Shown piece by piece: positions 3,001 through 31,191 of a stretch of DNA of 64,000 bases. This DNA is from Psammoneis japonica (Eukaryota): the NCBI GenBank assembly GCA_008632985.1, contig QPGO01000020.1, positions 62,001-126,000 of the forward strand, written 5' to 3'. Numbering within the stretch: the first letter of the stretch is position 1; every line of letters starts with the position of its first letter. Below the pieces are notes generated by a model. That model had not been told where the DNA came from, did no database searches, and saw only the letters and a program-made list of their open reading frames with translations. A program made the position numbers and the translations under genes.

Positions 3001-4180
3001 CACAAAGAGGCTCTGACCATCCTTCTGCAGCAGCACAAAGGCTCCCAACCACCACAAGTGGCAGTGCTGGTGCAAAGACTCTAACCACCACAGGTGGCAG
3101 CAGTGCAAAGGTTCCAACTGTCCTTTCTGGAAAAGTGCAAAGGCTCTGACGGTTCTTTTGCAGTGGCACAAAAGGCTTCAACCATCCGCACAAATGCTCC
3201 CGACCACCACAAGTGGCAGCAATGCAAGACTTTGATCACCACAGGTGGCAGCAGTGCAAAAGCTCCAACTTTCCTTTTGGCAGCAGTGCAAAGACTCCAG
3301 CAGTTGTTCTGCAGTGGCACAAAGGCTCTGGCCATCCTTCTGCAGCAGCACCAAGACTCCCAACCACCACAAGTGGCAGCAACACAAAGACTCTAACCAC
3401 CACAGGTGGGGGCAGCACAAAAGCTCCAACCATCCTTTCTGAAGTGGCGCAAAGGCTCCAACAGTCCTTTTGCAGTGGTGCAAAAGGATCCAACCATCCT
3501 TTTGCAGCAGCGCAAAGACTCTGCACTGCCACAAATGGCGGCAGTGCAAACACTCTAATTGCCGAAGGGCAGCGGCGCAGAGCAGCACAAAGTCTTCAAC
3601 CATTCTTTCTGAAACGGTTCAAAGACTGCAATGCTCTTTTTGCAGTGGTGCAAAAGCTCCCAGCCATTGAAAGTGACAGCAGCACAAAGGCTTTAACTGC
3701 TGCAGGCGGCGGCACAAAGGCAAAACGTGCCATTCATGCATGGGCACAGAAATGAAGCCATGAGAACAAGCTCTGTCAGGCCAACCATGTGTCATGCATG
3801 CATCAACAAAACTCCCATGGCTCATGCAAAATGGGCCATTCTCCTGAACCAGCTGTCAATGCAGACTCTGTCATTGCATTAAGAAAGATGTGCTGCATGA
3901 CATGGCTTTGGGAAAGTTCTGGCGCCACCGCCGCCCTGCCATGTCAACATGATTGTGAAATTGCCATTGGCTTTGTGCAAATTTTTGAATGAGCTAATGG
4001 GGCAACTGCCATTTTGGCATGTTCCCAATTGAAATTGTGTGCTGGAGCTGTGCACGAGTTTCTGGCAGCACTCCAAAAATGAGCTGGACAAGCTGTCTCT
4101 CTGTTGACTTTCCTGCACATTTTGGCACAGGGCTTTCAGGTTGCTTCAGGATGTTGATGTTGCTGTTTGTTTTTGTTTTG
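1..4180. repeat. Degenerate repeat/TE-derived block, depleted of TpA and CpG
   Basis: Very few TA or CG dinucleotides and a large excess of TG/CA. Only spurious Cys/His/Gln-rich ORFs. Normal composition resumes at ~4180. The family cannot be recognised by eye. Confidence 0.6.
2940..3720. repeat. Degenerate minisatellite, ~30-33 bp units
   Basis: Recurrent motifs accaccacaagtggcagcagtgcaaag(g/a)ctc and ccatcctt(c/t)tgcagcagcacaaag. Confidence 0.7.
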
Positions 4181-4677
4181 TATTGCGAATGCATCGGTGG
4201 CTGCAGCAAGGTCCGATTTAAGCATCAATTCATTTGTAGGACGAGTGTCGAAAGTGCGGGTTCGAACGGATGCGAGAATGGAGTGTTTTTGTTCTTTGCA
4301 GACGGCAATGTTCTACTAGCTAGAGTAGGTACTGTTCTTACACCGACAGCATCCTTCATTCAATGACCTCTCCAACAGAAAAAATGATGACCTTTCCACC
4401 CAGTTACCTAGCAGTTACCAAGCCACAGTGTACAATTCTACAGAAGTCACGTGACCGCGACAACTGGAATATAACAGAGAGGCATTTACGCCTCACATTT
4501 TCCCCCGCAACAATACATACGGTACCCATACCTCCCAAAGTCTTTCGATTTGTGGCCAAACATCTAACAATACCGGATGAGTTAGCACAAAAGCATCGAA
4601 TTCGTCTGGTGGATAAAAGAGCACAACTTGCGTAAGGAATACTTTCACGCCATCTTCCTTGAATCAACCCTCGAATC

Positions 4678-5451
4678 ATGTCCAACATTTTTATTTCCAG
4701 CCGAAGCGACTACCTCGTAGCTACCGAATTGAACAACATCGGTGTTGAACTACTCGAGGCGGGATCATTTCGTCGTGCCATGCAAACACTGAAGGAGGCG
4801 ATTGAGGTTATGAAGGTCGCTCTTCGTCCCGTTCCCTCAAATCTGGACTACAGATCATCGAATGATGCTGGAACAAACATCGATATTAGGATCTTCAAGG
4901 CGAAGCGAAGGCTAGAAGAGCTTGAATTTAGCTATCCAACATCAAATGCGTTTCTTTACAAGACAGGGGAAGGTTTCATCAACCAATACCTCGACGAAAG
5001 AGACAGAGAAATCTCCCAGGATCAACAAAATCCCATTTTCATTCAAGTGTCAGACCTTAACGAGTTTGAGTGCATCAACCCTGACGTCGAGAGCGCCGTC
5101 ATATTTTATAACTTAGCGCTTGTTCATTTGCAAATGAGCGCAGAAGCGCTAAATGGGTCTATCTTTGTGCAGGGGGCTCACGATCTGTTCGACATGGCGT
5201 ATTCGATTGCGCTTTCCGACACAACTACCATTATGGATATGTCGCTTGAGGACATTCGGGAACTCAACCAGACACGAGTACTCTTTGCAATTGTCATACT
5301 CAACAACATGATAAGAGTGAAGCGAGCTCTTGGAAAGCATGACGACGCCAGGAATGCGATGCAACGGTTAATCCGACTTGGATTAGCCGTCAATAACCCA
5401 GAAGGAAATCCTGACTATGTGAACGTCTCCTCAGCAGCACCAGCGGCGTGA
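4678..5451 (+). CDS. Hypothetical helical (TPR-like) protein of a diatom-type family, 257 aa
   Basis: Intact single-exon ORF with normal composition. Motifs LNNIGVELLEAG and SAVIFYNLALVH, and a C-terminal AAPAA. Confidence 0.8.
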   Translation: MSNIFISSRSDYLVATELNNIGVELLEAGSFRRAMQTLKEAIEVMKVALRPVPSNLDYRSSNDAGTNIDIRIFKAKRRLEELEFSYPTSNAFLYKTGEGFINQYLDERDREISQDQQNPIFIQVSDLNEFECINPDVESAVIFYNLALVHLQMSAEALNGSIFVQGAHDLFDMAYSIALSDTTTIMDMSLEDIRELNQTRVLFAIVILNNMIRVKRALGKHDDARNAMQRLIRLGLAVNNPEGNPDYVNVSSAAPAA

Positions 5452-5553: not shown

Positions 5554-6359
5554 TCACACCTCGAGATCCAGCAAGCGTATTACAGTTCCGAGGCTGTCGT
5601 GTGCTCTCTCTACGTTTTTCCTCGACCGCTCCAGGAACAGCGCAACCCGGTCCTTTCCGCCACCTGGATTGGCTTCTCCCCAACTCGAAACATACGCCAC
5701 GCCATTCGCTTCGTCCGCCTGCTCCACCCACTTGTCGAAGGCTTCTCCATATTCAAAGTCCTTGTCGGCGGACACTAGATCTCGCAATCTGAGCAAGGTC
5801 TTGTCAGCTCGAAACAATGGATCAGCCGTACTCTTGTATCCCATGTACTGATCACAAGAAGAGTGACAACGAATGTGAAAAAGCCATCCGAAGCTGTAAT
5901 TCAAGGCGGTCGCGTCAGAAAAACCAACAAGGCATCAGCATCGACCAACATACCTCCATAACTTTCTCGGGGGTTCGCTGTGACAACGAATGTGAAAAAA
6001 GCCGTCAGAAGTCAGAAGCTGTAAGACAAGGCAGCGCGTCAGAAAAAACAACGAAGACATCATACCTCACAGCCCGAGTCGAAAGCCTGGCCTTTAGTGC
6101 ATGAGGTGGTTTCATCTTCCCAATTCTTCAATAAATAGTCAAGTCGTTGGTAGCCCTTGACAATGTTCGCTTTGTCTATATCTTCCTGAGAAGATTTTGC
6201 TTGCGCTGGAACAGAATTCGTCGAAAAAAAAACACAAGAAACGACTGATCCACTAGCCAGCCTCAAGAAATCTCTTCGAGCAGCAGCTGTTGAACCAGAT
6301 GCTAAAGCAGATGATAGGACAACTGGCGCCAGCAAAATCGTCAACCGAAACAACACCAT
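5554..6359 (-). CDS. Plastid, probably thylakoid-lumen, protein. Three exons: 6359-6066, 5977-5954 (24-nt microexon RTPEKVME), 5847-5554; ~203 aa
   Basis: Signal peptide, twin-arginine RRDFL and AQA cleavage-like site. Two phase-0 GTATG...CAG introns (6065-5978, 5953-5848) join the ORF pieces in frame: ...SGCE-RTPEKVME-YMGYKS... Confidence 0.85.
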
Positions 6360-6574
6360 GGTGACGACGGGAGACCGGAGGGTGTGCGGAGTTCAGATTT
6401 GGATCGGGTCACTCCCGGCTTGGAGGTCTGTAGGATCGGGTGAGAGGGCACGTCGACCGCACCGCGCGCGCTTCGCACACCCCTCACGAGAATGGAAGAG
6501 GCGGATTTTGCACCGAAGATGACAGACGGAAAATCAAAAAATGGGATGCGCGGATTTTTTTCCTACCGTGCTTC

Positions 6575-6738
6575 TGCAGTGACTCACTCGCACGCTTCTG
6601 ACACATAATGTTAATTTTGGACATTAGATTAACGTAGCCGTTTGAGAGGGCTCGCCAGCGCTCGCTGACGCTTAGGCTCTCCCTCTCTTCGGTCTGCTCA
6701 CTTCCTTGTTTTGACACCAACCTCAGCTTGAGCTTGCA
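6575..6738 (+). repeat. 5' LTR of Gypsy element
   Basis: Direct repeat of 11829-11992, with 13 differences in my manual alignment, all transitions. Confidence 0.95.
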
Positions 6739-6972
6739 CTGCAGTTGCAGTCGATTGTAAAGAGCTGAATGAGAAACAACGATGCAACTGACAGGCTTGC
6801 GAAACAAGAGAAAAGAACTTTGAGAGCGAAGGCAGTGAACTGGGCTTTGGAACAAAAATGAGAAAAGGAGATACGAAAACAACGCGAACAGAATGTTTGG
6901 CGATTCGAGTGGCACAACTCGAGTCGAAGGTGGAGCACTTGAAACAGTTCCTTGGTGGACCAACTTGGCCTG

Positions 6973-9900
6973 ATGAGTGATCGCGAGAGCCTCAAGGAAC
7001 CGTGCATCTTGCATGCTGCGAAATTTGCCCATTCGGATTTGGAACTCGCAAAACTGACCCAATCGTATGATGATGGTGGCACGCGCACAAAAAAGTGCCC
7101 TTGTTTTGATGGAAGCAATGGGATTGAAGCGTTGTTGTTTGTGGAAGACCGTTTTCGTAAACTGGCTGCAAAACTTGAGTTCACTGCAGGAGAAGAATTG
7201 TTTGATGATTTTGAAGAAGTGTTGACAGACACAGCCGAAGACAAATGGTCCGCGCAGAAGATGGCAGCTCGTTTTGACCAAGAGTTGGCTCGTTTTTGTT
7301 TGTCGCATTGTGAAACTGAAGCTCGTGACACGATGATTGAATGCTTGCTTGCTCTCAAAAAGCCGTGTGACGTTGAAGTGCAGGCACACGCAGATCGAAT
7401 GGAAACTTTGGCACAACACACAAACAAGTTGCCGGGAAATGATCCAGTTGTCACTCAGAACCAGAAGAAGAAGATGATTTTTGACAGCTTCCCTCTGTCG
7501 TGGCGCGAGATGCACACAAGAGCAGGACGCACGATTGGAAATGACACACTGGCGGAGATTGTCACGTGTGTGAGCATGGAGAAATTGTTTGCGGATGGGA
7601 ACAAGAAGACGTCAAAAAAGCGCAAAGATGGACAGTCTAAAGGTGGCTCCAATGAGAAGAAAGGCAACCACATTGACCCAGAAACCCAATGTCCATTGCA
7701 CACTCACAATCACAAGTGGAAAGATTGCATCATGAATCCCGACTCCAACAACTGCCATCCAAGAACTGATCGTGGCGGTCGCGGGTGTGGTGGCCATGGT
7801 GGTTGAGGTGGCAGTCGCAGTGGAGGTCGTGGTCATGGCAGAAATCAAGGTCGTGGTTGGCAAGGCCGTGGCTGTCAAGGTCGTGGCAGTGGCCGAGGAA
7901 ATTGTGGCGGTCAAGGAAACTGCAACTCTGGTGGCAATGGCGGCGAGCATCATGAAGATGGTGGCTCCCACGTGCAATGTCAAAACGACACCCGAGCCAA
8001 TGCAGATGGCGGCGGTCATGGTGATCCGGCCAGAATGGCTCCTCCTGATGATTGGTCTGCTGAAAGCCATCATCTTGATTCGATGGGAGGGCCTCGTGAG
8101 TGTCGAGGTGGAGCAGGAAGTTTTCGACCTGGTGGTCGCTTCTCGGGACGCCATCGACACTGACCCAATGAGCTTGAAGAGCTGCAGTCCGAGTGTGTCG
8201 CTCATGATTCCCACATGTTTGATGATTGCACTGATTGCACTGATGATTGTCACGCACATGCTGCTGATTTGTTTGATGATGACGATTTCAAAAATTGCAC
8301 TGTGAATGACGAAGACGATGTGGGACTTGAGCACGCTGCACCAACCCCAAAAACAAAACCAACCAAACCTTTGAACGTGGTCCCTGCAACCTCATTCGCA
8401 GCGCGATTTGTGCAAGACAAGGAAAGCAAGCGCGTGATGCGGGTGTTGCTCGACTCTGGTGGAACCCATTCAATGATTCATGCTCGGGTGTTGCCAATTG
8501 GAGCAGTGCCAGCATTGGAGGAAACAGGGCCAATTGTTGTGAAGTTTTGGACGTCAGCGGGAGAATTCAAATCTGCTCGTTACGTTCGACTGCGGGACAT
8601 GGTGCTCCCTGAATTTGACAAGACAAAACGCATTGATGGCATGCATGCACATGTGTTTGACTCACCTTGCCAGCATGACATGATCCTTGGACAGGACTTC
8701 TTGGCGAGAGCAGGTGTCACGTTAGATTTTGAACACGGGATTGTCAAGTGGCTTGATTCAAGCATTGCAATGAAGCCAAGAAACCATCGGATTGGCATCC
8801 AGCAGTGGCTTGACGACTTGACTGATGAGCCAGCTGACGATGATGATGTGTGGGACAGCTGCATCCTCGATGCAAAGCATGAGGAAACGTCCCCTTCTGA
8901 AGCAGCGTCGGCTCAGAAGCACCTCACTGCCAAACAACAAGAAAAATTACGCCTTGTGTTGGAAAAACACACCACTCTTTTTGATGGCACTCTCGGCAAG
9001 CATGCTGGCAAAAAAGTTCACCTTGACATTGATCCTGACGCTGTTCCTTGCCATTCTCGAGCGCATGCAGTGCCGCACAATGATCTCGAGACTTTCAAAC
9101 GAGAACTGGATCATTTGGTGATTCTTGGCGTTCTTGAAGAGGCCGGAACAACGGAATGGGCTGCTGGCACTTTTGTTTGGCCAAAGAAGGATGGTCGAGT
9201 GCGGTGGCTCAGCGATTTTTGGGAACTCAACAAAGCCCTCAAGCACAAGGTTTGCCCTTTGCCGATCATTCAAGATGTGCTGCAGAAGAGAGCCGGGCGC
9301 AAGTTTTTGACTAAATTGGACCTCTCAATGATGCACCATGCACTCGAATTGGATGACGATTCCAAGGACTTGATGACAATCGTGACACCCTTTGGAAAGT
9401 GCCGATGCTGCCGTTCAGCAATGGGTCTGAAGCCGGCTCCAGACATTGTGCAATGTTCAATTGAGAAAACTGTGCACGACTTGGACGTTGACGCGTGTGT
9501 TGATGATCTTGCTCAATTTGATGACGACTTTGACATTCACCTTGACCGTCTTGACAAACTTTTACAACGCCTGGAGGAAGCTGGATTCAAAGTAAATCCC
9601 TTGAAATGCGAATGGTGTGTGCAGGAAACGGATTTCCTTGGGCATTGGCTGACTCCGACTGGAATTCGTCCGTGGAAGAAAAAGGTGGAGGCTGTCCTGC
9701 GGATGCAACCTCCGGAAAACATCAAGCAGCTTCGTTCGTTCCTTGGTGCTGTGACGCATTGTCGCAGTGTGTGGCCTCGGCGTTCTCACCTGTTGAAACC
9801 CTTGACAGATCTCACAGGCAAAGGCTCATGGACATGGACAGCGGAATGTCAGGCGGCATTCGATGAGATGAAAGCAGTCCCAGCGGCTGAAACATTGATG

Positions 9901-11706
9901 GCACACCCGAATCACAACAAACCCTTCCACATCTGCACCGATGCAAGTGATTGCCAGATGGGTGCAGTGATTGTGCAGGATGGAAAGCCCACTGCACACT
10001 GGTCTCGAAAGCTCAATGCGGCGCAACAAAACTGTTCGACAATCGAAAAAGAACTGCCAGCCATTGTCATGTGCTTCCGAGAATGCCGAACAATGCTCCT
10101 TGGCGGCGACTTGCATGCATTCACTGACCACAAGAACCTTGCCTTTCGCACCTTGAATTCACAGCGCGCACTTCGTTGGCGACTCTTTCTGGAAGACTTT
10201 GCCCCTCAATTTCATTGCATTGAAGGCCGATTGAATGTCTTGGCTGATTGTTTTTCTCGTTTGCCTCGCATGGATCCTCCCTCTGAAGGGAAGAGCTTGG
10301 CTCCGGGCAAAGGAACTGTTGTCGATTTTGCCCCGCTCAATTCGAAGTTGGTGCCGAGTGAGGAACCATCCGAAGTCGAGGATTTCCACGATGAGGACTT
10401 GGAGCTCGGCGCATGCCGATTCAAGTGTTGTCGCAACATTGAAAATGAAGGCCACTCACACTTCTTCTCTTTCTTTGTGGATGAGCCGGAACTGTTCGAT
10501 TCCTTCTTGAATTGCCCTGCTGTGCAGGAGATGCAGAATCCAATGACGTTGCAACACATTCAGGAGCATCAGTTCGAGGACCAACAGTTGAACCAGATGC
10601 GCATTGCTCACCCTGATCATTTCCTCGTGGAATGTGTGAATGATCGACCGCTTGCATGTTGTCGTGCGCGACCGAATGATCCTCCAGGACAGTGGAAAAT
10701 CTGTTTGCCGACTGCGCTTGTGCCCGACATCTTACGGTGGTGTCATCTCGTCCTTGGCCATGCCGGAAGCCAGCGCATGCGTGAGATGATCCAGGCTCAT
10801 TGTCATCATCCTGGGTTGTGTTGCATGTGTGATGAATGCTCTTGTGCTGATTGTCAACGTAACAAAACATTGGGTCCTGGCTGTGGAGAGTTGCCCGAGC
10901 AAGAAGCTGCATTAACTCCCTGGTCGGAAGTGGCGGTTGATCTCATTGGCCCATGGAAAATCAAAGCACCAGATGGAGAGATTGAGTTTCGGGCATTGAC
11001 CTGTGTTGATCCTGTCTCTGATCTTGTTGAGCTGGTGAGAATTGAAAATAAAACTGCCCGACATGTTGCCAACCAATTTGAAAACTGCTGGCTTGCACGC
11101 TGTCCCAGACCGAATCGATGCATCCACGATGACGGTGGCGAGTTCACCGGGTGCGATTTTCAGATGCTGTTGCAACGAGCCGGAATTGATGATGTGCTGA
11201 CTGCTTCGTACAATCCTCAAGCCAACGCCATTTGCGAACAAATGCACCAGACCGTCGGCAATGTGTTGCGAACGCTCATTGCTTCCAATCCACCTCAAAA
11301 TCTTCAAGATGCAGCCAGCCTCGTGGACGATGCTTTGGCAACTGCAATGCATGCAACTCGCTGTGCTGTTTCCCATTCTTTGCAGATTTCACCAGGTGCC
11401 ATGGTGTTCAGACGTGACATGATCCTAGACATCCCTGTGCTGGCAGACTCATTGACGATCCAAGGCCATCGCCAGACGCTGATCAACAATGATTTGCAAA
11501 GAGCTGATGCCAAGAGAAGATCCTGCGATTGTCAAGTGGGTGATCAAGTTCCAATCAAGTCGGTTAACCCGTCCAGCCTCGAGCCTCGTGCTCATGGCCC
11601 TCATCCTGTTGTTCAAGTGCATGTGAATGGCATGCTTTTGCTTCGTCGAGCTCCTCATGTGGTTGAGCGCCTCAACATTCGGCGCCTGATTCCTTTTCGT
11701 GGTTGA
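6973..11706 (+). pseudogene. Gypsy gag-pol in a single frame, with two in-frame TGA stops (7804-7806, 8161-8163)
   Basis: ORF pieces 6952-7806, 7972-8163 and 8215-11706 share one frame. Motifs: CPLH..HKW..C (gag), LLDSGG (protease), LDLS and ACVDD (RT, from YxDD), CTDASDCQ (RNase H, from YTDASDY), H..GH...C..C and VDLIGP (integrase). Confidence 0.93.
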
Positions 11707-11828
11707 TCAGGGGGGTTTCTTCCCAACACCTGGGTTTCCTCCTGCCGTTGTGATTTCTTTGGGTTTTGGCAACTGGTTTTGGCCCTTTGCATGATCCTCC
11801 AGTTCTTTTGGATCATGGAAGGGAAGAG

Positions 11829-11992
11829 TGCAGTGACTCACTCGCACGCTTCTGACACACAGCACCAATTTTGGACATTGGATTAATGCAGCCATTTGAG
11901 AGGGCTCGCCAGCGCTCGCTGATGCTTGGGCTCTCCCTCTCTTCGGTCTGCTCACTTCCTTGTTTTGACATCAACCTCAGCTTGAGCTTGCA
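11829..11992 (+). repeat. 3' LTR of Gypsy element
   Basis: Follows the PPT and is followed by TSD GCTTC. Confidence 0.95.
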
Positions 11993-12018
11993 GCTTCTCC
12001 CGTGCAATTCAACACTTG

Positions 12019-15000
12019 CAGCTTTCCCTGCAATCAAACAAAACGCCGCAGAATTTGTGTGGGACACACCAGCTTTTTGTGACATGTCCGCTTTGACGTC
12101 ATCGCAACAATCTTGAAGCACGAGAAAAAGCATGAGACAATGGCGCTGGTGGAATCGGCTTTTTTGTGGTTTTGCTGCTGAGTCCTCTCTGATCCCCCTG
12201 CACAGCTTGACAGCAAACACCCGTCAAAATGTCACAAGGCAATGCAATCAGAGCGTCTCGGTCGACACCGACTGGCATCATCACTTTGCATTTCAGGGAT
12301 GCATGCAAGATGCCGAAGTTCCAGTGCAGATGGATCAAGGCGAACTGTTTTGTGCATGTGACAAAAGAGGCCTGTGCAATTGACAAAGATTTGAACTTCA
12401 ATGCCAAGAAGTTGAACAGTGCATTGAGTGGAGTTGGATCTCCATTTCCAGAAATTGACAAGGACACGTCTGAGAACGATGGCGGGGTTTTCCGAAAGCA
12501 GTTCCGACCGAAGGGAGAGCCGTCTGTTGTGGCACACTGTGCCTGCAAAGAGCAAGAATTGCCAAGGTGTGTGCCCTCAACAATCAATGATCTCAGGTGT
12601 GTGATGTTGACTGTTGAAGAGTGCAACAAGAAAGTAGAAACTCGAGCCGGCTCCAGCAAGAGAACAGCGGGGTACGACGCAAACGAGTGCGCACAGACGT
12701 TGCAGGAAACAAGCAAAGAAAAAGAAAAGGAAAGAACCACTAGAGTCCTCTGCAACAGAGGAGAAATCATCCAATGATGGTGGTGCTGATGAAGACAACA
12801 CTCCTGAGAATGATGCCACGCCTGCCAATGATTTGACCGCTGTTGTTGGCATCTTCTGGGATGACACGACCGTGCGGAACCTGTTCAATGCAGATGATGG
12901 AGAGGATGCAAAAAAGACAATTGAGAAACAGACAGATAAATTGACTTCTGGATTTGCTTTTCATGATGGATGGAAAGAAGTGATCAAAGGAGGTGACCCT
13001 GACAACCTGTGCACACCCAACGACGCTCATGTGTGATTCGATTGAGATGCCAGCATCTTGCGATCGCGCTTGACCATGCGTTGAAGAAGCTGCCAAAAAG
13101 GAACACTGCATGGCTTGACTGCTGTCAGCATGCAATCGATGACCTCAGCGGTGCAGGTGTTAACTTTATGAAAAGTTGCCAAACCGCAGCTGCTTGGCAT
13201 CGCATCTTTAGGAATCTCAGTTCCTTTCCTCATCCCCGACCAAAAGGAAAAGGAGACCCACCGACATTTGAAGCACATCCAAAGATGAAGCGGAAATTCA
13301 TTGAGTTTGTGACAGCAAACCTTTCTCGACTTTCTGCTGAGGTGGCCACAGACCACTTCCACGAAGTGCTTGTCCCGGAATTCTTAAAGAGAGAGAACAA
13401 TGACCATCGCAAGAACGGGGAAGACATCTTGTAGTCAGAACGGGAGTTCCTGAATCAGCATGGATTGCTCACCGGGGAAAACCAACCATGCATTTCTTCC
13501 AATGCAGTTTCCAACTGGATGAATCTATTTGGTTTCTGGCATGGGCCAAACAAAAAGATGCACCATGTTGACAATCATGAATGTCCCGACAATGTGAGGT
13601 GTCGGAATGCGATGGTCCGTCGATGCTTGATGATGGAAGAACGATGCCCACGTTGGATGCAACTTCCAAAAGCCACTGCCATGGACCTTGTCAAAGCTGA
13701 AGCTCTCCCAGCAAAAATGGGGCATGAATGCCAAGTCGATGGAGAAGATTTTGTCGAGCATCATGTCAACACTGTCATCGACCCGGAGCATCCAAGCCTT
13801 GTGCCCAAGCTGTCCGTGCAATTTGGAGGAAGTGAAAGTGTGAGAAAGGATCCGAATGTAAAGCCTGTCATGACATTTGGACAGGACGAGGCCATTTTTA
13901 AGCAACACTTGCTAAGCACAAGCAGCTGGTCGGGTCCCAAAGGTGAGTGGCCGCTGCTGCCCAAAGATGATGGAGAAGGCGTGATGCAGTCTGTGTTTCA
14001 ATGTCGAGAGGTCGGCCTCATTCAAGATGGAGACATTTCGGAAGAGCAACTCCAAGAGACAAATGAAACTCGAGCAGGCAAACACTGCACTGATGAAGAT
14101 GCTGCAGAAACAGCATTCAGCAAGAAGCAGCACAAGCCGAAGTTGAAGAAAAGTCCATTCATCCGCGAGTTCAAGCATGGAGCAAACAGCGACAGACACT
14201 GGAATTGTGACCACATGTTGGTGCAATTGGAGGATTGCGTGGATTGCTTGAAAGTGCTGCATCCTCAATTTGACTGTCATTTCCTTTTTGATCATTCTTG
14301 CGGGCACGACAAGCAGAGAGCAGACGGACCAATCTGCAACAAGCGCACGATGAATGCAGGAGTCGGCAGCAGTCAGAACAAGATGCACCCCACTGAGATT
14401 CTTCAGGCAGAGGGCTTTCTAGGTCCTCATGCTGAAGCAGTTGGCATGTTGTCTGCAGGACAAGTGCAAACAATGGCATTCAGTGAGGAAGACCAGGGAC
14501 CATGCTGGATGATGCCGGAAGAACGAGAAGCTGAGAAATGTGACGCACCTGTCGAGGGTCAAACTGAAACTCGGAAGTTCCTGCGTGATGAAATTTTTGA
14601 CAAGCTTCTACAAAAGAACATCAAGAACATCAGGGGCAAGAAAAAGGATGAATTGATTGACACAGCAAAGAGCAACAACATGCCTGTCAAAGAAACCATT
14701 CAAAAGGTGAAGCACGGATGGGTCAACAAGCCGAAAGGATCAAAGCAAATTTTGCATGAGCAAGGATGGATTGATCCCAATGACCCTGGAAAATGCACTG
14801 TGGATGGCACAAAGGGCAAAGATGGAGAGATCGACAAGTCAACATCTCTTCTTCACTTGATGGCCACTTGCGATGATTTCGTCAACGAAGAGACGTTGTT
14901 GCAAACCATGGGTCGCAAAATGGGTGTGACCATTGACAGAACGCCAAAGTGTCACCCACAATGGCTGGGGAGGGCATTGAATGTTCTTGGGGACTCGCAA

Positions 15001-15464
15001 AGCAGCATTGTTGTTTGCAACCTTTGTCAAGAAAGAGGGGAAAGCAAAACTTTAGAGAGTTGGCACGAGAATCAATGTCATCAAGCGCACTCACGACTGA
15101 CAGGATGCAAAAGTTCTCGCGACGAGCACGACGATGCATTTGTGCTTGCATGGTTCTTTCACAACCTGATGTGTCTCAAGAGGTTCAGCATGAAGCCTTG
15201 TCTCTTGAGACCATTGAAAAGCTTGTCAAAGAGTTCAAAACGCACCGCAGTGCCACTGATTTTGACAAGGGTTTCATTGTGAGGACGCTTTTCGCAGGGT
15301 GAAAAGATGTTTTTTTTGCAGGCAAATAAAAAACTTTAGAATGTGGACAAGTTTTATGTGCAACGCTGCTGGCGATTTTACTTTGGCTTTTTGCATGAAA
15401 AACAAATTTTCCCACCAGTGGCGTGGGATCAATGCGACGTTTGGGTTGGTTGCAGGGAAAGCTG
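12019..15464 (+). mobile_element. Tc1/mariner(ITm)-like TIR DNA transposon, degenerate
   Basis: ~32-bp TIRs: cagctttccctgcaatcaaacaaaacgccgca (12019-12050) and the reverse complement of 15433-15464, with 4 mismatches. Flanks read TG and CA where a TA TSD is expected. Contains a DDE transposase remnant. Confidence 0.85.
12229..15302 (+). pseudogene. DDE transposase pseudogene with stops and frameshifts
   Basis: Motifs FGQDEAIF, PLLPKDDGEG, FLFDHSCGH and TPKCHP/AGEGIECSWG (frameshift near 14960). Tyr positions are replaced by Cys/His. Confidence 0.8.
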
Positions 15465-18400
15465 CAATGGCGAATGACAATCAGACATTGCAAAACCTCA
15501 AAGCACATGTGTCAAAGCTGTCTCCACATGAGCAAGGTTCTGGGAAAGCATTTTGGTGTCAACAAGTGCTCTCGAGCACCACTCGCCATTCAGGCGGGAA
15601 ATCGTGGCACTGGTTTGATGCAGAAACTGCGCAGAAAGGAAGGAATGTTGTGGAACTCAATGAACAGACCAACCTGACAAATCAGTGTTTAGAACTTGTC
15701 TTTTGCACCTGAAGAGCACATGACATGTTTGGATGACTTGCTCACATTGTTTCGGGGGGCGGCAGGAGAGACATTGGCTGAATTGCATGTGGCTTGGGGG
15801 GGGAATCTTTTGCACGCACCCCATTTCATCTGGCCATCTTCCACATGGAATGGGTCAATTGTCAAGAAACAAATGACCTCACACTTGACTTTACATCATG
15901 TGAATGTGTTCAGTCATGAGGACATTGCAGACACCTTGCAATGGCCCCCTGTCGATTGACCCAGTCTGCAGCAATTTGAGATGATTGCAAAATTTTCAGA
16001 GCCCCTCGTCCTTTGAGCATTGAAAGTGATTTGTCCAGTGCTCTGTGCAAATGGAGAATTGCTCCACTGCACACTCACAATTTGAGAATTTGTTTCTTTG
16101 CAACAACTGAGCTCTTCATCAGCCCAAAAGCTTGGCGGACGTCATCAGGAGATGACTCTGACAGCACACGCTTCCTCTGTGCTGAGTGAGACAAAAGAGA
16201 CAACCAGCCACAATGTCATTTTCTCTAAAACCTGCTCAGGCCATCACAGGCATTTTTGACTTTGTGGAGAAAAGCTCACAAAGCCATCTGCAACAAGGCA
16301 GTTGAGAAGCTCAAGGAGAGTGGCCTTGGCTGCACACAGCAGGAGAAACTGCTTCAGCTCCTCAAGACCCTTAGCGATGGAGCTGCCAAGAATGGATGGA
16401 ACAAAGCTGATGGAATGTTGATGATTCCTGATGATCCAGTGGACATCATGTCTGATGTCACCAATTTGTTGACACACTGTGTTCAAATCAAGGCGGAGCT
16501 CATGTCTTTGTTTGTGAGCACATTTGCATTGATCAAATGGCAAGGCCAGCACACGATGCAAGGATGCTGTGCCACCTGCTCATGATTGCACTTTCTGAAG
16601 AAGAAAAGACTGGAATTGTGGTCTGGGAAAAGCAATGCAAAATTCTCAAGAATGACAAGATGAGTCTGTTGGGAAACATTCTGTTGAAGGTGACAATCCA
16701 AGAAAGACACCAATGGAGCTGCAATGAGCATCAGGAGGATGAAAAACTTGGCAATGTTGACAAGTGCATTGACCCAGCATTGAGCAATGTTGCCAAATTC
16801 ACTCAATGCATGCTGCTCTTGGCACCTGATGCAAGCTCTCAAGTCCCATGATGAGACAACAGAAGGTCATCCAATTGAACTTGTTTGAAGGATGCACTGC
16901 AGTGTCCGACAAGACATTTGTTGATTGCATCCATTGCAAGCACAATGAGTGTGATGAAGGACATGACATGGACCCCCAATGAACTTGCAAACCTCATTGT
17001 CAATGAGTGCAAGAAGATGGTTGAGAGGGAGGAATGGAGTGCATCATCCCTTGAGGAGGAAAAGATTCTGGCTCTAGAAGTGAAGGTTGATGTCCTTAAA
17101 CCATCTCAAGGCAAAAAGACCAATCCAAAAATGAGGGAAATCCAAAGAGTCAGAAGAAAGGAGAGAAGAAGACGCATGGACCCAAGCCTGCTTGGTTGGA
17201 GAAGGACAAAAGACACACAAACAATCAACTTCACAAGCCCCAGCATTGGAGCAACAAGCCATGACACTGTTGTTGTCACAAGGACACATGCGGAAAGTGT
17301 GGTGGAAAGTGGTGGATCCATGAACCACGCATGTGAAGGAAAAGCCTTCCTTGCTTGGAAACCATGCGGTGCAAAAAGTCCTTCAGAGAAAAACAATCAG
17401 TCAACATCAACCAAGAAAGTCCAAAAGGACCTCAAGTCACTCAAGCTGTCAGAAGCACTCACTGCTCTTGCAGACAAGATTGAGACCTCAGATGAAGAAT
17501 GGCTGGTGGCAGAGCAAGGCAACGAGCCCAACTGTGATTGGGAAAATCATGGCATTGCAGTCTGCATGATGTCCTTTGCAACATGGTGCACAACTGCAAT
17601 TTGCAGCTCTCTGCTGCTGCTGTTGCTGCCACCAATGCAATTCATGTAGATGGCTGTGTCCTGCAATTGGATCTCCATCACAGTCTGGGGAAAAAATTGC
17701 CAAGAGATGCAACCGCAAATGCTGCTCCAAACAAATTTGTTGCTGGAGCTCACACATCACTGGCAATTGCTGTTTTCTGTCTCATTGTTTTTGTTGGCAA
17801 GGACCCCAACAATCCCAATCTGTGCTTCATTTCACAGTTGCAGTGTTGGAGGAAATGCTGAAGATTGATGCAGCAGGCCCAGTGAAGCATGCAATGGACA
17901 GAAAACAGACTGGTTGATTTGTTGTTTGTTGAAAGTGGGGTCAATTGACTGTCCACAGTCAAGCAATCCCAAACGGGGCAAGAGTCAGGCAAGTTCAAGA
18001 GTCACTGAGCAAGATCAACAACGAGCATCAAAGAAGGCATTCAACACAAATGACAGCAGCACTGGCCATCCTGGCAGTGTGCATGATGGCCCAGAATGAT
18101 GCCCTCAAGTGAGACAAAACATGACTCAATTTGACACAGATTCAGGGCCTGCAGGCATGGACAACTGATGATGCAGGGGATGTGTGTCCAGTGCAGCCAC
18201 AGACTTTGCAAGTGAGCTTGTTCTAAGCATTGAGCCACAAAAGGATTCAGAGGGTCAAGAACAATGGAAGTCATGATGGGCACATTGACAATGGTGCAAT
18301 GACAACAGGGCTGCTCACTTGTTGTTTAAAACCCCAAACTTGCACTGTGCACCCAATGGCAAAGTCCGCCTGTTGAGTCCCCAGCACATCTGTGACATGT

Positions 18401-20379
18401 TTCCATGCTTGACAAGAGCACAACTTGTCAATGATTGAAATTTGTCACATGCATGCTGATTGCATCCACAGATCTTCCCAACACACACAATTGTCAATTT
18501 TGTTTCTTTGCAGTTGTCAAGTCACAACAAATGAATCTTTTTTGCTCATTTTAAGCCACCTGTGTGGCTCATTCTGTCCACATTGTAAACACTTGTTAAG
18601 AACAGTTTCATTTGTTTTTTCCTTCCATTTGTTGTCAGATCTCTGCCTTTGTTTAAAATGCCTGTGTGGCTCACATGAGTGTTTTCTCTGTGTGCAGCAG
18701 TTTGCTGGTTCAGTCTGTTGTGGCAAAGGAAAGTGAGCATGGCAACATGTTTCTAAAAGGCACTCGAGTGATGTGTTTCCCATCACAAAAACATCAAACC
18801 AAACATGAAGATTGTGGAGGCCACAATGCTTCTCATCACTGCATTTCCAGCTGGCTTGCAAGGTGTGTGGATGAATCCTCACATTGCACATGAGGCACCA
18901 CAGTGTGGTGGCTTTTCCAGGACTTCATAAGTCCAGAATCTTGTCTGGCCTCTGAGGTGCCTCAAATTGAAAAAATTTGGTGTCAGTCCCTCCCATGCAC
19001 AGGCAACTGCTGCAAGGGATTTGGGAAGTGCTGCCGTGCTGTTGCTTGGTCAGTTGAAAAATCCAGCACAGCTGCTGTGAAGCACAGGAGTCCAAAGTGT
19101 TTGCTTTTTAAGGATGTGATGATTTCCAGAGCATTTTCATTCAATGATGATCAGAAAAAATCAATCTGAGAAAACACAATGTGATGAGCATGTTGGGCAT
19201 TTTGCCACATGGGAGTTGCTCAAGAAGCAACGACCTTTCAAGACATCAACACAATGCTTTGCAGAGCATTTCTTTTAAAACAAACCCAGAATCAAGAGTT
19301 TTAGAATAAAAACCTGGAACACTCCAGAGCTGTGGCAAATGCTCTTTCATGCCAACAAGAAACAGCAGTGCTTCTAGTCACAGCACAGTTGCCCCAGCTC
19401 TGACCATTTTTGCACTGCTCCTTGCCCTTGCCATTCTCTGGTGGGCAGGCATTGCGAATGTCCAAAAAGGATTCTTTGGTTTCCGTTGCCTCTGGCAATG
19501 CATGTGTGGCATTTGTTTGACACCACCAATCCATGCAAGACACCGTTTGTGGTTCTTTCCACATTCAAAACTTCTCCATCAACAAAGGGACAGCCGCAAG
19601 GGCATTCCATGTCTCCCGCTTGTGCCTCTTCCTTCATTTCTTTCATCATTTTGGTGCCCATGGCAGAGGCATTTGTTGTGTTGCTTCTTGGCAATGGCAA
19701 CATTAATTTGAGACACACAATTCTTGTCACAACAAAAATGCTTCTGCTGTCGATCCTTTTGATCAAACCTTTTGATCAAACCTCACCAACAAAATCTTTG
19801 CATCTCATGAATCAAGCAATGGCTCTGCTGCTTGGAAAGCCACTGCCAGATGACAGAGACTGGGAAGATTGTTTCATTTTCTTCCCTGTCACCACTGCAA
19901 ATGAAGACAATGGCCAGAGTTCACGAGCCACACACCCTCAGTTCCAAGGGGTTCATTCTGGTGTTGAGTTTGATGACATGTCTTGGCATCTCCAATTTGA
20001 GCAACAGGCTTGCCAGGTGGATGGTGCATGATGCACAGGTCAAAGCCAATTGAGAAGCAAAAATGGAGCATGTGGTGGTGTCCCCATGTCCCAGCACACA
20101 TTTGCCAAATGCCAAGCCAGATCATCATCATCGCTGCAAATGCACATTGGTTTGAGTTGCGGCCTGCATGACACGCACCCCAGATGCACTCAATCTGCAT
20201 TTGTTGAGCAGGTTGGCCCAATTGTGGTGTCTTTGCACTCTTGATTTGGGAAGCTGCAATCCTTCTTGTCTTGGTGGGCAGCAGCAGCCCTGTCACACGA
20301 TTCCTTCACAAACAAGAAGATGCCCGGCTGCACAAAGTGTGGAAGCATGAGGCCCACAGATGTGGCAAAGGAGGTGTGC

Positions 20380-21600
20380 AGCCATCTTGAGATGGCATTG
20401 GAGGACTCCAGTGGGTTGCCAGGGACATGCCAACAACCATGGTTGGGGAGCAAATGCCTTGTCTTGTGTCAATGCAGCACCTTGTCTCTCTGACATGACT
20501 GGCTTTGGCCCAGCCAGCCAACCTGCAGAAAGAAGAAAACCATCTGTGTGACAGGGCAAGTGCTCCATTGTCTTGGGATGGCATTGGATGACTCCATTGG
20601 GTCCCTGAAGATGCAACAACAACAAAGGTTGCAAAGCAAAGGCCTTGTCTTTTGTCAATGCAGCACCCAGTCTCTTTGACATGACTGGGCTGTTTGGCCC
20701 AGCCACCCCACCTGCAAGGACAAGAAAACCATCTGTGTGACAGTGCAAGTGCTCCGTTGTCTTGGGATGGCATTGGATGACTCTGTTGGTTCCCAGAGGA
20801 TGCAATGACAACTGTGGTTGGGAAGCAAAGGCCTTGTCTTGTGGCAACACAGCACACTGTCTCTCTGAGGCTGACATGACTGTGTTCTTTTGCCCAGCAA
20901 CCCCACCCACAGAGAGACAAGAAAACCATCTGTGTGACAGTGCAAGTGCTCTGTTGTCTTCTTGGGATGGCTTTTGGCAACTCCATTGGATCCCAGAGGA
21001 GCTAACAACAACCATGGTTGGGAAGCAAATGTCTTGTCTTGTGTCAATGCAGCACATTGTGTCTCTGACATGATTGGGTTTGGCCCAGCCAGCCTGCCCG
21101 CCCACCCACAGAGGTGAGAAAACCATCTGTGCAACAGCACAAGTGCTCAGTTGTCTTGAGATGGCTTTTGGTGACTCCATTGGATCCCAGAGCAGCCAGC
21201 AACAACAATGGTTGGGAAGAAAAGGCCTTGTCTTGTGTCAGCGCAGGACCTTGTCTCTCTAACATGACTGGGCTTGGCCCAGCCATCCCACCCACAGAGA
21301 CAAATCTGTGCAACAGTGCAAGTGCTCAGTTGTCTTGGGATGGCTTGGTGACTCCATTGGATCCCAGAGGATCCAACAACAACAATGGTTGGGAAGAAAA
21401 GGCCTTGTCTTGTTGGGAAGGAAAAGCCTGGTCTTGGGCCAATGCAGCCTTTTTTCTGTCTGACATGATTGGCTTGCTTTGGCCCAGCCACCTTTCCCAA
21501 AGAGACAAGAGAGCTTTCTGTGCTGTGTGACAGTGCAAGTGCCCAGTTGTCTTTGGATGGCCTTGGGTGCCTCCATTGTGACCCAGGGGAGCCAACAACA
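20380..21600. repeat. Tandem array of ~190-bp units, ~6 copies
   Basis: Motif aaaaccatctgtg(tg/ca)acag..caagtgct recurs at ~20537, 20726, 20922, 21120, 21302 and 21520. Confidence 0.85.
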
Positions 21601-24600
21601 GCTGGGGCCGGGAGTCAGTGAATGGAAATTCATGGTGTTCCCTGTCTCTTGTTTGGATGGAAAGCCAAGAGAGAGCAGAACAGCAAGACCCACTGTCAAT
21701 TGCTCACTTTCTTTACAAGGTGGGTCTCCAAAGTTGTCATTTTGCTGGCATGAAGGGTCTGTTTCTGAGCTTTCTGGAGAGAGGCAATTGTCTTGTTGGC
21801 AGCAGCAATTTTTGAACACACCAAATGGCAAAAAGGTGTTGATTGAGGTCCCAGAGCTGGGAGTGGGAGTGTGCAGGCAGAAGTGTGAATTTCCAATCTC
21901 AACAAGAACACTTTGGTGTGATGAAGTCAAACCTGTTGAATGCATGCCTGATGTCAATGAACAAATGATTCATCAAGGCTCACAGTTTGGCCAAAAACAT
22001 GAATTGTCCCTCCCTCACAAGACACCAAAAATGCAAACTCAAGTCACAAGCATTGCATGAAAATGAGAGCGGCAGTGACAGGCAGTGGCATTGCAGATGG
22101 GACAGAATGGAATGCAGGACACAAGATGAGAAAGAGAAAACAAGTGGCAAATGCACAGAGATTGGGTGCACAATGCAAACAACTGACACTTGCACACATC
22201 TTTGCACACAGACATCTGGACAGTGACCTGAGATGCAAAGGAAGACGGCAACCGGGAAGGGCACAAAGGTGAGCAAAAGCAGCACATGAGACAAGATTGT
22301 GGGAAACGCAAGACATGTGTAAAAACTGATCATTGGCACAAAGTTTTCTCCAGTTGCATGCAACATTTTGGCCAATCAAACAGAAGGAACAACCATCAAA
22401 CCAAATTGGAAGGTTCTGGTGATTGTTGCACACCCTTTGTTGACAATTGTCAAGAACTTGTTGTGAACACAGGATTCTGAACAAGAGAGTGTGAATTCTG
22501 AACAAGAGCAAATGTGTTTTCCAGATGCATTGTGGGCAAAGACACAAAAGGTCTGCAAGCTGGCTGAAGGTGCAGGGGGAAGCATGGGTTGCAAGCAGTG
22601 CACACTGCACCGGAGTCAAAAGAGAAATAAACTCACTCTTCTCCTGAGTCCAGAGACCAATGTGGCAATGTTCAACCTTGCTCCTGGTTGCCAGAAGTTT
22701 GAGGCCTTCCATGATGAATGTGGAATCAACAACACTGCTGAAAACAATGATCCTGTTGAAGCAAACAAAGCAAACATTGTGAGCAACAAATGGGAGGAAG
22801 AAGACAAGGAAATCCAATGACTCAGGGTTGGTCAGATGCACCTGGACCTTGAACCCAATGAAGGCTGTGTTGCACCATGCAAAGCATGACAAGCATGCCT
22901 CAGGGTTCTTGGAGAGCAATGCTTCAGTTGCTGCTCCACTCAATTTGGATGGACCACCTGAGGGCATGAGTGAAACAAGTTCACTCTAAGTTGTGACAGA
23001 TGAGGAAGGTTGGCAGAAAAAAATGCATCACCACAATTGTTGAGACTTCACCAAAAATGTGGGAACATCTCATTCCTGAAACTGCAAGAAATGGTGGAGC
23101 AGGGAGTCATCCCAAAGCATTTGGCAAAACACAATGCACCTGCATGCTCCTCCTCATGCATGTTTGCAAAAGCAACCAAGCACAAGTGGCAAATTCTGCA
23201 ACAAGAAGGAACACAATTCACAGAAGCCAACATGACCGGGTCAAGTGATTTCAGCAGATCAGACAGTGTCGCTGACTCCGGGGCTGACTGTGCGCCAGAT
23301 GGCGGGGTTCTGACAACCAAGCTGAGATGCAAGTGCGCAACAGCATGTGTTGATCAACACTCCCACTTCAACCATGCGCACCTGCAAAAGACAGCAAGCA
23401 TGGAAGAGATGTCAGAAGGAAAGAAAGCCTTTGAGCTCATGGCAATGAATTGCTGGGTCAAGGCACCAACTTGCCATGCAGACAATGGGGCATCTAAGGT
23501 GAGGCAATGGATGCAAGCATGTTGTGACCAAGGACAAGGATTGCACATGCAGGCATCAATGCACACCACATGAATGGCTTTGCAGAGCACTGCATGTGCA
23601 AGCTGCAGGAACATGATGCATGAAGTGTGCTCATGCGTGCAAATGGATGATGGCCTTCAAGCAAAAACACAGCCAACTTGTGACCACATGCTGTCCAAAA
23701 AGCAAACAATGCAATCAATGAAACATCCAGCTTCCAGAATCCTGGGTGCAAGACTCCTCTGACTCAGTTGCAAATGCAAACAGACATCTTGAGCAACCCC
23801 AAATCATGTGCCAGACAACCAGCTCCAAACAAACTGCCCATTTCACAAGTGGAGGCAATGATCAAGGGTTGGAACATGCTTGAGGGTGAGTCCAATGTGT
23901 GTGGCAGCCATGCGGACAAGCCCAGTGCATGGCAGGAATGTTGCCTTGGCGCCAAACAGAGCAACAGTGCACACAAGTCCCCAGCTCCATGTGCAATGTG
24001 ACCCCAGCTCCCAGCTTCCATGTGACAAAACAGGACAAGTTTGACTCAACATGGCAAATGAAAGCCAGAACTGTGAGTCAGAGGGAGGTCAACAAACCAG
24101 CCAAAGGCAAGAACAAGATGCTGCTCATGCTTGAAGCTGCCAACAAGCAGAGCATTTGTCAGCAAAAAGAGGTGGCTGATGCCTCCTTCAGAAAGAGCAT
24201 CAAAGAGGATGAGGTTCAAGAATGTGACAAACCATTTGCAAGATTTTTACAAAACACTGGGGTCACCTAAAGCCAGCAAGCAAGTTGTCAATGCTGCAGC
24301 AGCTGGGTTGCCTCTGGCACAGCCAGAATCTCCAGAAGGGACCTTGGCAGCAGGTGGGTGAGTCTGATCTGCCCAGAGTGCCAAGGACATCAGAGACAAA
24401 CACAAGATCAGGGCAACAGAGCTGGTCAGTTGAGCAGCCAGCACTGGCAATGACAGCTGAACTTGGCACAGATGCAGATGGGAACATTGAGAGAGAGACA
24501 TCTTCACTGACAGCTGCTTCACCACACAATGAATCACACCCATCTCAAATGATGCCAACCCTCTTCCAGAACACAAAGTTTCAAAACAGACCCTGATGTG

Positions 24601-25529
24601 CCAGGCACACATGCACAAAGCAATGAAACAACAAGATTGCAAGGAATTCATCAAGGTGATGTGCAAAAAGGTCAAGGATCAAATGGGATCAAACAAAGAA
24701 TGGAAACTTTGCCACAGTTCCAAGATCAATGGCGGCTGACAAAAGAAAGATGCTTCCAGCTGCATGGCAGATGAAACAAAAATGGGATGTCCTGAGGGAC
24801 ATCCTGACCAGTGCTGTCAAGAAATGGAAGGCAAGATTGAATGCAGACAGATCAAAAATGAGAGAAGGGGTCAATCACAGCAAAACATGTGCTCCATTGG
24901 CATCCTGGAACTCAGCACACATGCTGCTTGCCATGGCAGCAGTGCACAATTGGCGCGCTGAGCACAACTGGATTGTGTCTTGGCTTTTAAAAACAGGCTC
25001 CTGCAGAGCATCAGATTTGCATGCAGACTCCAAAAGGATTTGAAGTCGACAAAGGAAATTTGAAGAACTTTGCACTGCACCTGAGTGAGAATCTTTCAAG
25101 ACCACAGAAACAAGCTGGACAAGCATGGAGCAAGTGCCTGGACCTTGGTGGGCAGAAACAAGCCAGACGAGCATGTGTGGAACAAGCACCTGTTCAACGA
25201 GTTTGCAAAGGAGCTGAGCTTTGCACAGCCCAAGTTCCAGCATGAGTGTGCACTCTGCCAAGGCAACACAGAGCACTTGCCATGTGCTGATGACAGCTTG
25301 TTGGCAGGGCCCAAAATGACAAAGAGAGATTTGGCGACAAAAGCTGAGCTCTGGAAATTGCAAAGACCCACAAGTGCCTTCCAAGAACCAAAAACTTGAA
25401 CGCACAGCTGCACCACTTCAGAGACTGTGTGTCCAGGGGAGAAATTTCCATCCATCCTGTATCCTGTCTGTGCAAAGGAGCAAGTCGCCGATGAAAGTCT
25501 TGACTTGACTTCTGACAGGCTGAAACACA

Positions 25530-27548: not shown

Positions 27549-28050
27549 GTGGAATCAAACTTTGTCGGCAGATTTTTTTTTAGTAAACCAATTGAAAGAT
27601 TGGCATGGCATAAGGAAAATAGAAAGAGCTCACCATAAAATGGAATAAGAAAGGAGAAAGCACAACCAAAGGTAGGAGAGTGGCGGAGCAGTTGGAGTGT
27701 GTCGGCGGACTAGAGTAAAGGTCGGCGGTTTGCGGTTTCTCATTCGCTTCGAACCCGCTCTCGATGACGTGGCTGGTCGCGCAGACACCAGGTACCCACG
27801 ACTAAACGGTCATCAATGCAGACCTTGAAGCACGTGCTACCGATTCCTCTGTAGATTTCTACGGCAAGGCCGACGTCATCCGTTGAAACTGACGGCCACA
27901 GAACGAAACGCGCACTGAACTCTCTTCTTCCTTCTTCCTCTCCATCACATTCATTTTCTCTGGGCTGTTGGAGACCGGAGGCGCTCTAACAAGAAGGAAG
28001 CTTATTCAACGCATACGGTGTATGTATTGTGTTGAGAAATAAAAGCCGCG

Positions 28051-31000: not shown

Positions 31001-31191
31001 CGGATCTTGTTTTGAAAATGAATGCGTCTGTTTACGTGTGTGGAGATGGAAACGCCATGGCGCGTGATGTTCAGTTTGCGTTAGTTGATTTGATTGCACA
31101 GTGCATGAAGGGCGACGAGGAGGGTGCCAAGGAATATCTTGAAAGAATGAAGCTGCAGAACCGATTTGTAATGGATATTTGGACTAGCTAG
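28051..31191 (+). CDS. MTRR: Diflavin reductase (methionine synthase reductase-like) with two tandem flavodoxin domains; intron 28992-29078; ~1017 aa
   Basis: Two copies of LYGSATGNAE...STTGNGD.PENA...LGLGDTNYD.FC. FAD-binding PRYYSVSSSP; NADPH-binding IGPGTGISPF, FFGCRH and YVCGDG; C-terminal DIWTS. An 87-nt GTAAG...CAG intron restores the frame. Confidence 0.88.

Follow-up and report, generated by a model that had tools for sequence, protein, structure and literature searches.

Erasure of TpA dinucleotides in transposons of the diatom Psammoneis japonica, recorded by the long terminal repeats of a Ty3/gypsy element

In the chlorarachniophyte alga Bigelowiella natans, integrated viral DNA undergoes hypermutation of TpA to TpG or CpA, and ADAT2 has been proposed as the enzyme (Mettrop et al., bioRxiv 10.64898/2026.01.13.699255). 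The deaminase TadA8e leaves genomic off-targets of the A-to-G and T-to-C type at TA (PMC13225742). In the diatom Phaeodactylum, DNMT5a methylates transposon CG, and diatom DNMT5 does so within regions that carry H3K9/H3K27 marks (PMC9998398). We analyzed a stretch of 64,000 nucleotides from the pennate diatom Psammoneis japonica (assembly GCA_008632985.1, contig QPGO01000020.1, positions 62,001 to 126,000 of the forward strand), which is hereafter called the window. It contains a complete Ty3/gypsy long terminal repeat (LTR) retrotransposon, with its LTRs, a 5-bp target duplication, a polypurine tract, and the order protease, reverse transcriptase, RNase H, and integrase. The element is an ordinary member of the Ty3/gypsy LTR retrotransposons, and it serves here as a recorder of a mutation process that removes TpA.

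Alignment of the two LTRs of the window element reproduced what a first-pass annotation had described, namely 13 differences in 164 bp, all of them transitions. Five sites are TA in the 5' LTR and CA or TG in the 3' LTR, three are CG on the 5' side and TG or CA on the other, and one site (two positions) reads TG in one LTR and CA in the other. The remaining three transitions, at 6608, 6611, and 6717, lie outside TA and CG steps. The counts of six TA in the 5' LTR against one in the 3' LTR were also confirmed, with the common one located in TTAA, and the CG counts are 9 and 6. The differences fall preferentially on TA, with 5 at 12 TA positions and 8 among the remaining 152 (p = 0.0008 by Fisher's test). 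That all five TA are on the 5' side in this pair has p = 0.06 alone; the asymmetry is weak from the single window pair and firm with the family data.

The direction of change can be read from the coding region and from the LTRs. Among 120 outside homologs of Pol, 21 columns are at least 70% Tyr, and at these columns the window copy has His 9 times, Cys 11 times, Arg once, and no Tyr. Other conserved Pol residues are mostly kept, such as W (14 of 14) and G (36 of 37). The conserved Tyr columns therefore fix the ancestral state as TA and the polarity as TA to CA or TG. The LTR copies in the genome (40 of 47 candidates were scored) hold 0–13 TA, the least-hit copies hold 11–13, and the same columns read TA, CA, or TG in different copies. 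The loss of conserved Tyr and the TA richness of the least-hit copies bear out the direction proposed in the annotation, and its refuting case, a gain of TA from ancestral TG or CA, is excluded by the 21 Tyr columns. Since TA loss strips all the conserved Tyr of Pol and the frames stay open, dead elements look intact to gene finders.

The process has a narrow signature. At 3931 TA-class sites, the outcome was TG at 1814, CA at 1610, TA at 455, CG at 33, and another state at 19. TA loss amounts to ~90%, compared with 0.7–1.2% per site for A to G outside TA and 0.1–0.3% for transversions. Both strands are affected near-equally, with a sense-strand bias of 1.11–1.15. A before A changed about half as fast as A before C, G, or T; consequently, survivors are found in TTAA, TAA, and TTA. 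TATA became TGTG or CACA 155 times and CATG or TGCA 84 times (site-preserving permutation z 2.5 and 3.4). Beyond 2 bp, strand concordance was 0.42–0.52, at the permutation null, and only TATA neighbours were concordant. Runs in the LTR alignment had suggested long processive single-strand tracts, but permutation tests on 19 copies and on the low-dose copies rejected them. (The 19-copy sets here and below leave out C10a, C70a, C97, and C26, which are intermediate, rearranged, truncated, and twin copies, respectively.) The process is distributive and highly specific, with at most very short coordinated changes. Erasure is confined to mobile DNA, and host genes are TA-normal, save for duplicated copies of a host methyltransferase gene. 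A DNA-type element with terminal inverted repeats (TIR) exhibits the same pattern. Several C5 DNA methyltransferase gene copies (L128–L130; C301, C297) are TA-erased, with 0–7 TA per 500 bp and 0–2 Tyr per frame; duplicated host genes can therefore be affected.

Mutation after integration, as the annotation had it, was borne out by LTR pairs, by differing target duplications, and by diverging twin copies. Fifteen independent LTR pairs (8 unpaired LTR matches were left out, and C26 was dropped as the twin of C295) differ at 206 positions, comprising 140 TA/CA/TG exchanges, 42 CpG changes, 15 other transitions, and 9 transversions. Target duplications were identical in 13 of 16 pairs, differed as CA versus TG in 2, and were mismatched in 1. 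One insertion is present as two near-identical copies, C295 and C26, and a younger LTR element is nested in it. Since the two split, the nested element has accumulated 32 one-sided and 8 opposite TA losses at 136 sites, 20 CpG losses at 336 sites, and 2 transversions in 6369 bp, and none of 38 TA has changed in the flanking host DNA or in the first 250 bp. This divergence of the twin copies at TA indicates that the process was still running recently. Between the window copy and each of 22 others, the CA/TG outcome at 160 inner sites agrees in 50–65% of cases. This is near the 58% expected from site bias; therefore, most losses are private. Within subfamilies the agreement is 60–73%, and part of the losses may be inherited there.

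Young copies carry 0–5 transversions and 54–84 transitions per kb. The ratio of the TA hazard to the transversion rate is 974 in the window copy, 983 in the twins, and 1818 in the young subfamily, all being relative values, with the twin estimate resting on 2 transversions. TA loss is 5–11-fold faster than CpG loss. With the total mutation rate of 4.77e-10 in Phaeodactylum (PMC6604790) and a transversion share assumed to be one third, TA loss would, as a rough figure, be of the order of 1e-7 per TA per generation. C15 and C295, from one young subfamily, have LTRs that differ by 0 and 17 transitions, respectively, with the interiors of both largely erased; dating by LTR divergence therefore fails in this genome.

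TA retention depends on position within the element and on the adjoining DNA. The observed/expected (o/e) ratio of TA in the flank was taken as a stand-in for gene proximity, and splicing was shown for one neighbour gene, at the window copy. The TA count of an LTR correlates with the flank TA o/e (rho 0.69, n = 30 LTRs), and the difference in TA between the LTRs of one element correlates with the difference between its flanks (rho 0.79, n = 15; 9 of the same sign, 4 opposite, and 2 ties). Along 36 ends of 19 copies, with the lightly hit C160 and C283 left out, the TA kept beside a TA-normal flank were 72 of 91 at 0–100 bp, 63 of 178 at 100–250 bp, and 165 of 1615 further in, and only 10 of 89 were kept at 0–100 bp beside a TA-poor flank. 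When C160 and C283 were included, 81 of 102 TA were kept in the first 100 bp. Inner TA survival was independent of the flank (rho 0.07). C15, which has TA-normal DNA on both sides, shows no transition differences between its LTRs, yet only 33 of its 198 inner TA are left. CG was kept in the first 250 bp at 156 of 166 sites beside a TA-normal flank versus 95 of 142 beside a TA-poor flank. The edge of TA sparing is common to CpG decay.

The position dependence claimed from the window pair accordingly stands as a family-wide sparing of edges, with the qualification that the 5' LTR itself is only half spared. It keeps TA at 6 of 13 sites, a site being an LTR column in which TA, or CA as well as TG, occurs among the family copies. 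Six of the seven sites lost from it read identically in the 3' LTR; these shared losses were possibly inherited from the donor copy and are therefore not datable by the window pair. The suggestion that the LTR on the gene side is spared holds near a TA-normal flank and fails as a rule for 5' versus 3' LTRs (Wilcoxon p 0.058 over 15 pairs), since three elements are reversed; the flank state matters instead. The direction, the action at the DNA level, the post-insertion and recent timing, the involvement of both strands, the edge gradient, and its sharing with CpG decay are observations that we regard with very high confidence.

To account for these observations, we propose a chromatin-confined adenine deamination, to which we assign a probability of roughly 0.55. 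A landed transposon would be packed into a domain of silent, CpG-methylated chromatin. A host activity confined to this domain would convert the A of TpA to a base read as G, most likely through a TadA/ADAT-like enzyme that deaminates adenine to inosine. Because TpA is a palindrome, a change on the top strand would give TG and one on the bottom strand CA, and the target would be lost either way. The changes would occur singly, dispersed over many generations, at a rate ~1000 times that of transversions and 5–11 times that of CpG decay. The domain would fade over the last 100–250 bp where the element meets TA-normal DNA. With such a fading edge, an LTR beside a gene would be partly spared and an LTR buried among repeats would not. 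The domain is probably methylated heterochromatin, because CG in diatom transposons is methylated by DNMT5 within H3K9/H3K27-marked regions (PMC9998398), and this genome has a DNMT5-type locus in which Tudor, C5-methyltransferase, and SNF2 domains occur together (L142, C76). Adenine deamination is the chemistry that we favor by a small measure, and we give even odds to the view that the process is a selected defence.

The deaminases and methyltransferases of the genome were surveyed by profile, giving 9 matches to PF00383, 5 to PF14437, 4 to PF02137 (2 loci), and 27 to PF00145. An ADAT2-like gene carrying the Asn motif is present (C26); this Asn is generally found in ADAT2. Two genes encode an adenosine-deaminase (editase) domain, L082 (C79) and L080 (C40), and no double-stranded RNA-binding domain was found in either. 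In addition, a zinc deaminase half-domain and a 2OG-Fe(II) dioxygenase are fused in a single frame at L075:313-1785 (C79). At another locus, a chromodomain adjoins a C5 methyltransferase (L131, C34), which is DNMT4-like by architecture.

Several results weigh against the proposed mechanism. No special enzyme was singled out among the deaminases of the genome, which form an ordinary-looking set with no chromatin-binding fusion, and the C79-type editase is diatom-wide, with many diatom homologs. Since TpA is palindromic, a hit on A and a hit on the paired T are indistinguishable by sequence. Four of the 13 elements with unequal LTRs run counter to the flank difference, and in five 3' ends that adjoin TA-normal DNA no more than 4 of 15–17 TA survive. 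The exceptions to the gradient are mostly 3' ends (C309, C4, C10b, C80, and C137). The flank TA o/e is shaped by the very process under study and does not prove the presence of a gene, and sites in one end are non-independent, so that Fisher p-values overstate the case. Across the 19 copies, TA survival tracks neither CpG loss (rho −0.24) nor private transversions (rho 0.00). C160 (C160:16504-21927, L041) keeps 118 of 193 inner TA (0.61) along its whole length with ordinary CpG loss, which implies that TA and CpG loss are not simply coupled; its retention could result from youth or from intermittent activity, the hypermutation in Bigelowiella being active in some lines only.

Other explanations were weighed against chromatin-confined deamination of adenine. 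The T of TpA might instead be modified in silent chromatin to 5-hydroxymethyluracil (5hmU) or a further oxidised base, which would mispair with G and give T to C. This follows the same domain logic, might arise as a side effect of a silencing mark and not from an editor, and, because of the palindrome, fits all the sequence observations equally. However, 5hmU mostly pairs with A, and we consider this chemistry unlikely. A dinoflagellate TET/JBP makes 5hmU that is enriched in repeats, but the available text gives no TpA specificity (PMC11572971). A Tet_JBP (PF12851) profile search of the genome gave no match, and the control was equally silent. Targeting by homology between repeats, as in fungal repeat-induced point mutation (RIP), would make the edge the end of pairing and not that of a chromatin domain. 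Every affected sequence that was compared is repeated, including the erased methyltransferase gene copies, and diatoms have DNMT4, which is related to RID (PMC9998398), with a chromodomain-bearing methyltransferase in this genome. On the other hand, the LTR, whose identical sequence is the most repeated part, is spared or erased according to the flank, long strand-coordinated tracts are absent, RIP changes C to T, and the target in Bigelowiella is single-copy (bioRxiv 10.64898/2026.01.13.699255). We therefore judge homology targeting to be improbable. The odds are slightly poorer still for error-prone patch repair, in which T:G from deaminated methyl-CpG would be excised and resynthesized by a polymerase-eta-like enzyme erring at WA. 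Patchwise mutation at WA hotspots is described for Pol eta (PMC7884765), and such repair would explain an edge common to CpG decay. After TA, the context with the most change is AA (1.2%). TA events in the twin copies are clustered at 300 bp (p 0.003), and where a CpG loss occurs within 100 bp of them, it belongs to the same lineage 15 times and to the other lineage 6 times. This weak same-lineage excess in the twins persists, but a tie between TA loss and nearby CpG loss was inconsistent across the 19 copies (1 of 8 tests, z −2.1), with no strand relation. AA changes are also at ~1% against ~90% at TA, transversions at TA are near nil (the 19 other states among 3931), strand tracts do not extend beyond TATA, and TA loss outpaces CpG loss by the factor given above.

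The bulk of the changes cannot have arisen before integration, whether by ADAR-like editing of the element RNA, by reverse-transcriptase error, or as an ancestral CA/TG with later gain of TA. The losses common to both window LTRs and the agreement within subfamilies count in favor of such an origin, and a minority of changes may be inherited. However, LTRs differ within elements, target duplications differ, the twin copies go on diverging, the DNA-type element behaves alike, and the conserved Tyr fix TA as ancestral. RNA editing of the ADAR type, which would affect one strand and leave the LTRs identical, does not agree with changes that affect both strands near-equally and leave the LTRs unequal. 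A pre-integration origin is thus refuted for the bulk, and as a general account it is scarcely credible. The context specificity of the changes already excludes selection, GC-biased gene conversion, and an assembly artefact, to which we attach an equally slight chance. The changes do raise GC, which is 0.47 in C160 and 0.49–0.51 in more erased copies, but CpG is lost concurrently, A/T sites outside TA change at ~1%, and the young copies combine many transitions with very few transversions. Against an artefact, CA/TG exchanges of the same kind are also seen between copies in the contigs of run X1, X1 possibly being the assembly's own sample.

The features of the window that bear on the element are listed in Table 1.

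Table 1. Coordinates of the Ty3/gypsy element and of adjoining features in the window.
Feature	Position	Strand	Remarks
Host gene	5554..6359	-	two introns; ~203 aa; TA-normal; divergent from the element; start codon 216 bp from 5' LTR
Left target-site duplication	6570..6574	+	GCTTC; also flanks right LTR
5' LTR	6575..6738	+	164 bp; TGCA...TGCA; 6 TA, 9 CG; partly spared
TA-poor block	6800..25400	.	~18 kb; contains the Ty3/gypsy element; TA o/e 0.00-0.14 per kb
Open frame in gag position	6943..7806	+	287 aa; gag by position only; no Pfam match
pol frame	8164..11706	+	1180 aa; aspartyl protease, reverse transcriptase, RNase H, integrase; Ty3/gypsy order; 2 Tyr
Polypurine tract	11817..11828	+	just before 3' LTR
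3' LTR	11829..11992	+	164 bp; TGCA...TGCA; 1 TA, 6 CG; within TA-poor block
Right target-site duplication	11993..11997	+	GCTTC; matches left copy
Neighbouring element with terminal inverted repeats	12017..15466	.	TA-erased; 3 close copies elsewhere, 92-94%

The gap between the 3' LTR and the TIR element is 24 bp. The splice joints of the host gene are CT..AC at 5847/5954 and 5977/6066 in contigs of run X2, which was read as RNA on the strength of GT-AG splice joints in its contigs, and the spliced frame is open. The two introns are repeats of each other and flank a 24-nt exon. The protein has a signal-peptide-like start and an RR motif, which we take to suggest targeting to the thylakoid lumen. 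A frame with weak TPR matches (4663-5451, +) is convergent with this gene. The insertion site (6505-6574 and 11998-12016) is a short degenerate repeat, and its relatives on C544 and C27 run across with a single copy of GCTTC. These related short repeats best explain a joint in run X1 that had been considered as an empty-site allele. No second allele of the insertion locus was found in the assembly.

Per kb, the TA o/e of the window is 0.00–0.15 in repeat blocks versus 0.33–0.87 in gene-rich stretches. The TA-poor blocks at 1-3000, 16000-25000, 42000-45000, and 47000-54000 are also CpG-poor (o/e 0.02–0.3), yet 7000-15000 is TA-poor with a CpG o/e kept at 0.5–0.8. CpG decay works as a slower clock of block age. 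The TA-poor blocks also contain a tandem array of ~190 bp (20318-21613), an array of ~160 bp (3003-3687), a 4.5-kb tandem duplication at 91–99% (47816-54198), a long palindrome (43762-44445), and another TIR element, whose inverted repeats are 51 bp long (54956-56875). Ordinary host genes encode RF-1 and MJ1316 domains (26049-27554), a reductase with flavodoxin, FAD-binding, and NAD-binding domains (28036-31191), and a PIG-M mannosyltransferase (59988-61409). The named homologs of one window gene are from pennate diatoms, at ~50–54% identity.

Outside this genome, a Tyr-poor Pol was seen in 1 of 120 homologs. This protein, P0190 (a JGI/IMG Gypsy Pol from another public sample), is 57% identical to the window Pol, has 0.8% Tyr, and carries Cys or His at 13 of 18 conserved Tyr columns; its sequence hints at the same process in another organism. 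None of 31 metagenome loci of related elements had a TA o/e below 0.45. Six metagenome elements (L092, L094, L096, L100, L104, and L114) have a CpG o/e below 0.2 with ordinary TA, that is, CpG decay without TA erasure. No report of TpA erasure in a diatom was found in the literature searched, which was thin on subscription papers, and the available part of PMC11884799 says nothing about TpA.

With this analysis, a mutation process described in 2026 for a single alga gains a second eukaryotic lineage, in which it has come close to completion and knockouts are practical. The spared edge, being common to CpG decay, suggests that chromatin determines where the process acts, and it predicts where edges should lie in methylation and histone maps. 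An adenine deaminase that works on chromosomal DNA, if this is the agent, would be nature's equivalent of the engineered adenine base editors. As a tentative generalization, which we think less probable than not, a natural editor of DNA adenine might be common to diatoms and chlorarachniophytes; silent chromatin would recruit it, and it would remove TpA from mobile DNA quickly on an evolutionary scale and stop one to two nucleosomes short of adjacent genes. Such a system would be chromatin-guided and not homology-guided, a defence of opposite polarity to RIP with a promoter guard.

Among the known systems, Pol eta mutagenesis at WA in somatic hypermutation resembles the diatom process in that mutation of A:T is centred on TA (PMC7884765). 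In contrast, AA is about a hundredfold colder than TA in the diatom, transversions are near nil, and strand patches are absent. The TadA8e adenine base editor gives the same changes at TA among its off-targets. Unlike the diatom process, it is engineered and not domain-restricted, and it shows only that the enzyme fold can give the signature (PMC13225742). The RIP of ascomycetes, which is premeiotic and depends on RID/DNMT4, is likewise repeat-restricted, consists of dinucleotide-specific transitions, and kills transposons for good. However, its polarity is opposite, because RIP makes TpA and the diatom process destroys it; moreover, sparing in the diatom follows the flank and not the repeat boundary. 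Fungal RIP was rejected on this polarity and on the strand concordance at the permutation null. The closest likeness is to Bigelowiella (bioRxiv 10.64898/2026.01.13.699255), where, as in the diatom, A:T changes to G:C only at TpA, on both strands, in foreign or mobile DNA, and ~1000-fold over background. The words "diatom", "LTR", "CpG", and "boundary" are absent from the available text of that report. The host here is a diatom and not a chlorarachniophyte, the process approaches saturation in LTR elements, TIR elements, and gene duplicates, and LTR pairs and twin copies give its timing; it also leaves a spared edge of 100–250 bp that is common to CpG decay. The rate was measured in Bigelowiella, whereas that in the diatom is relative. 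Judged from its sequence signature, the diatom process matches that of Bigelowiella and appears to work like it.

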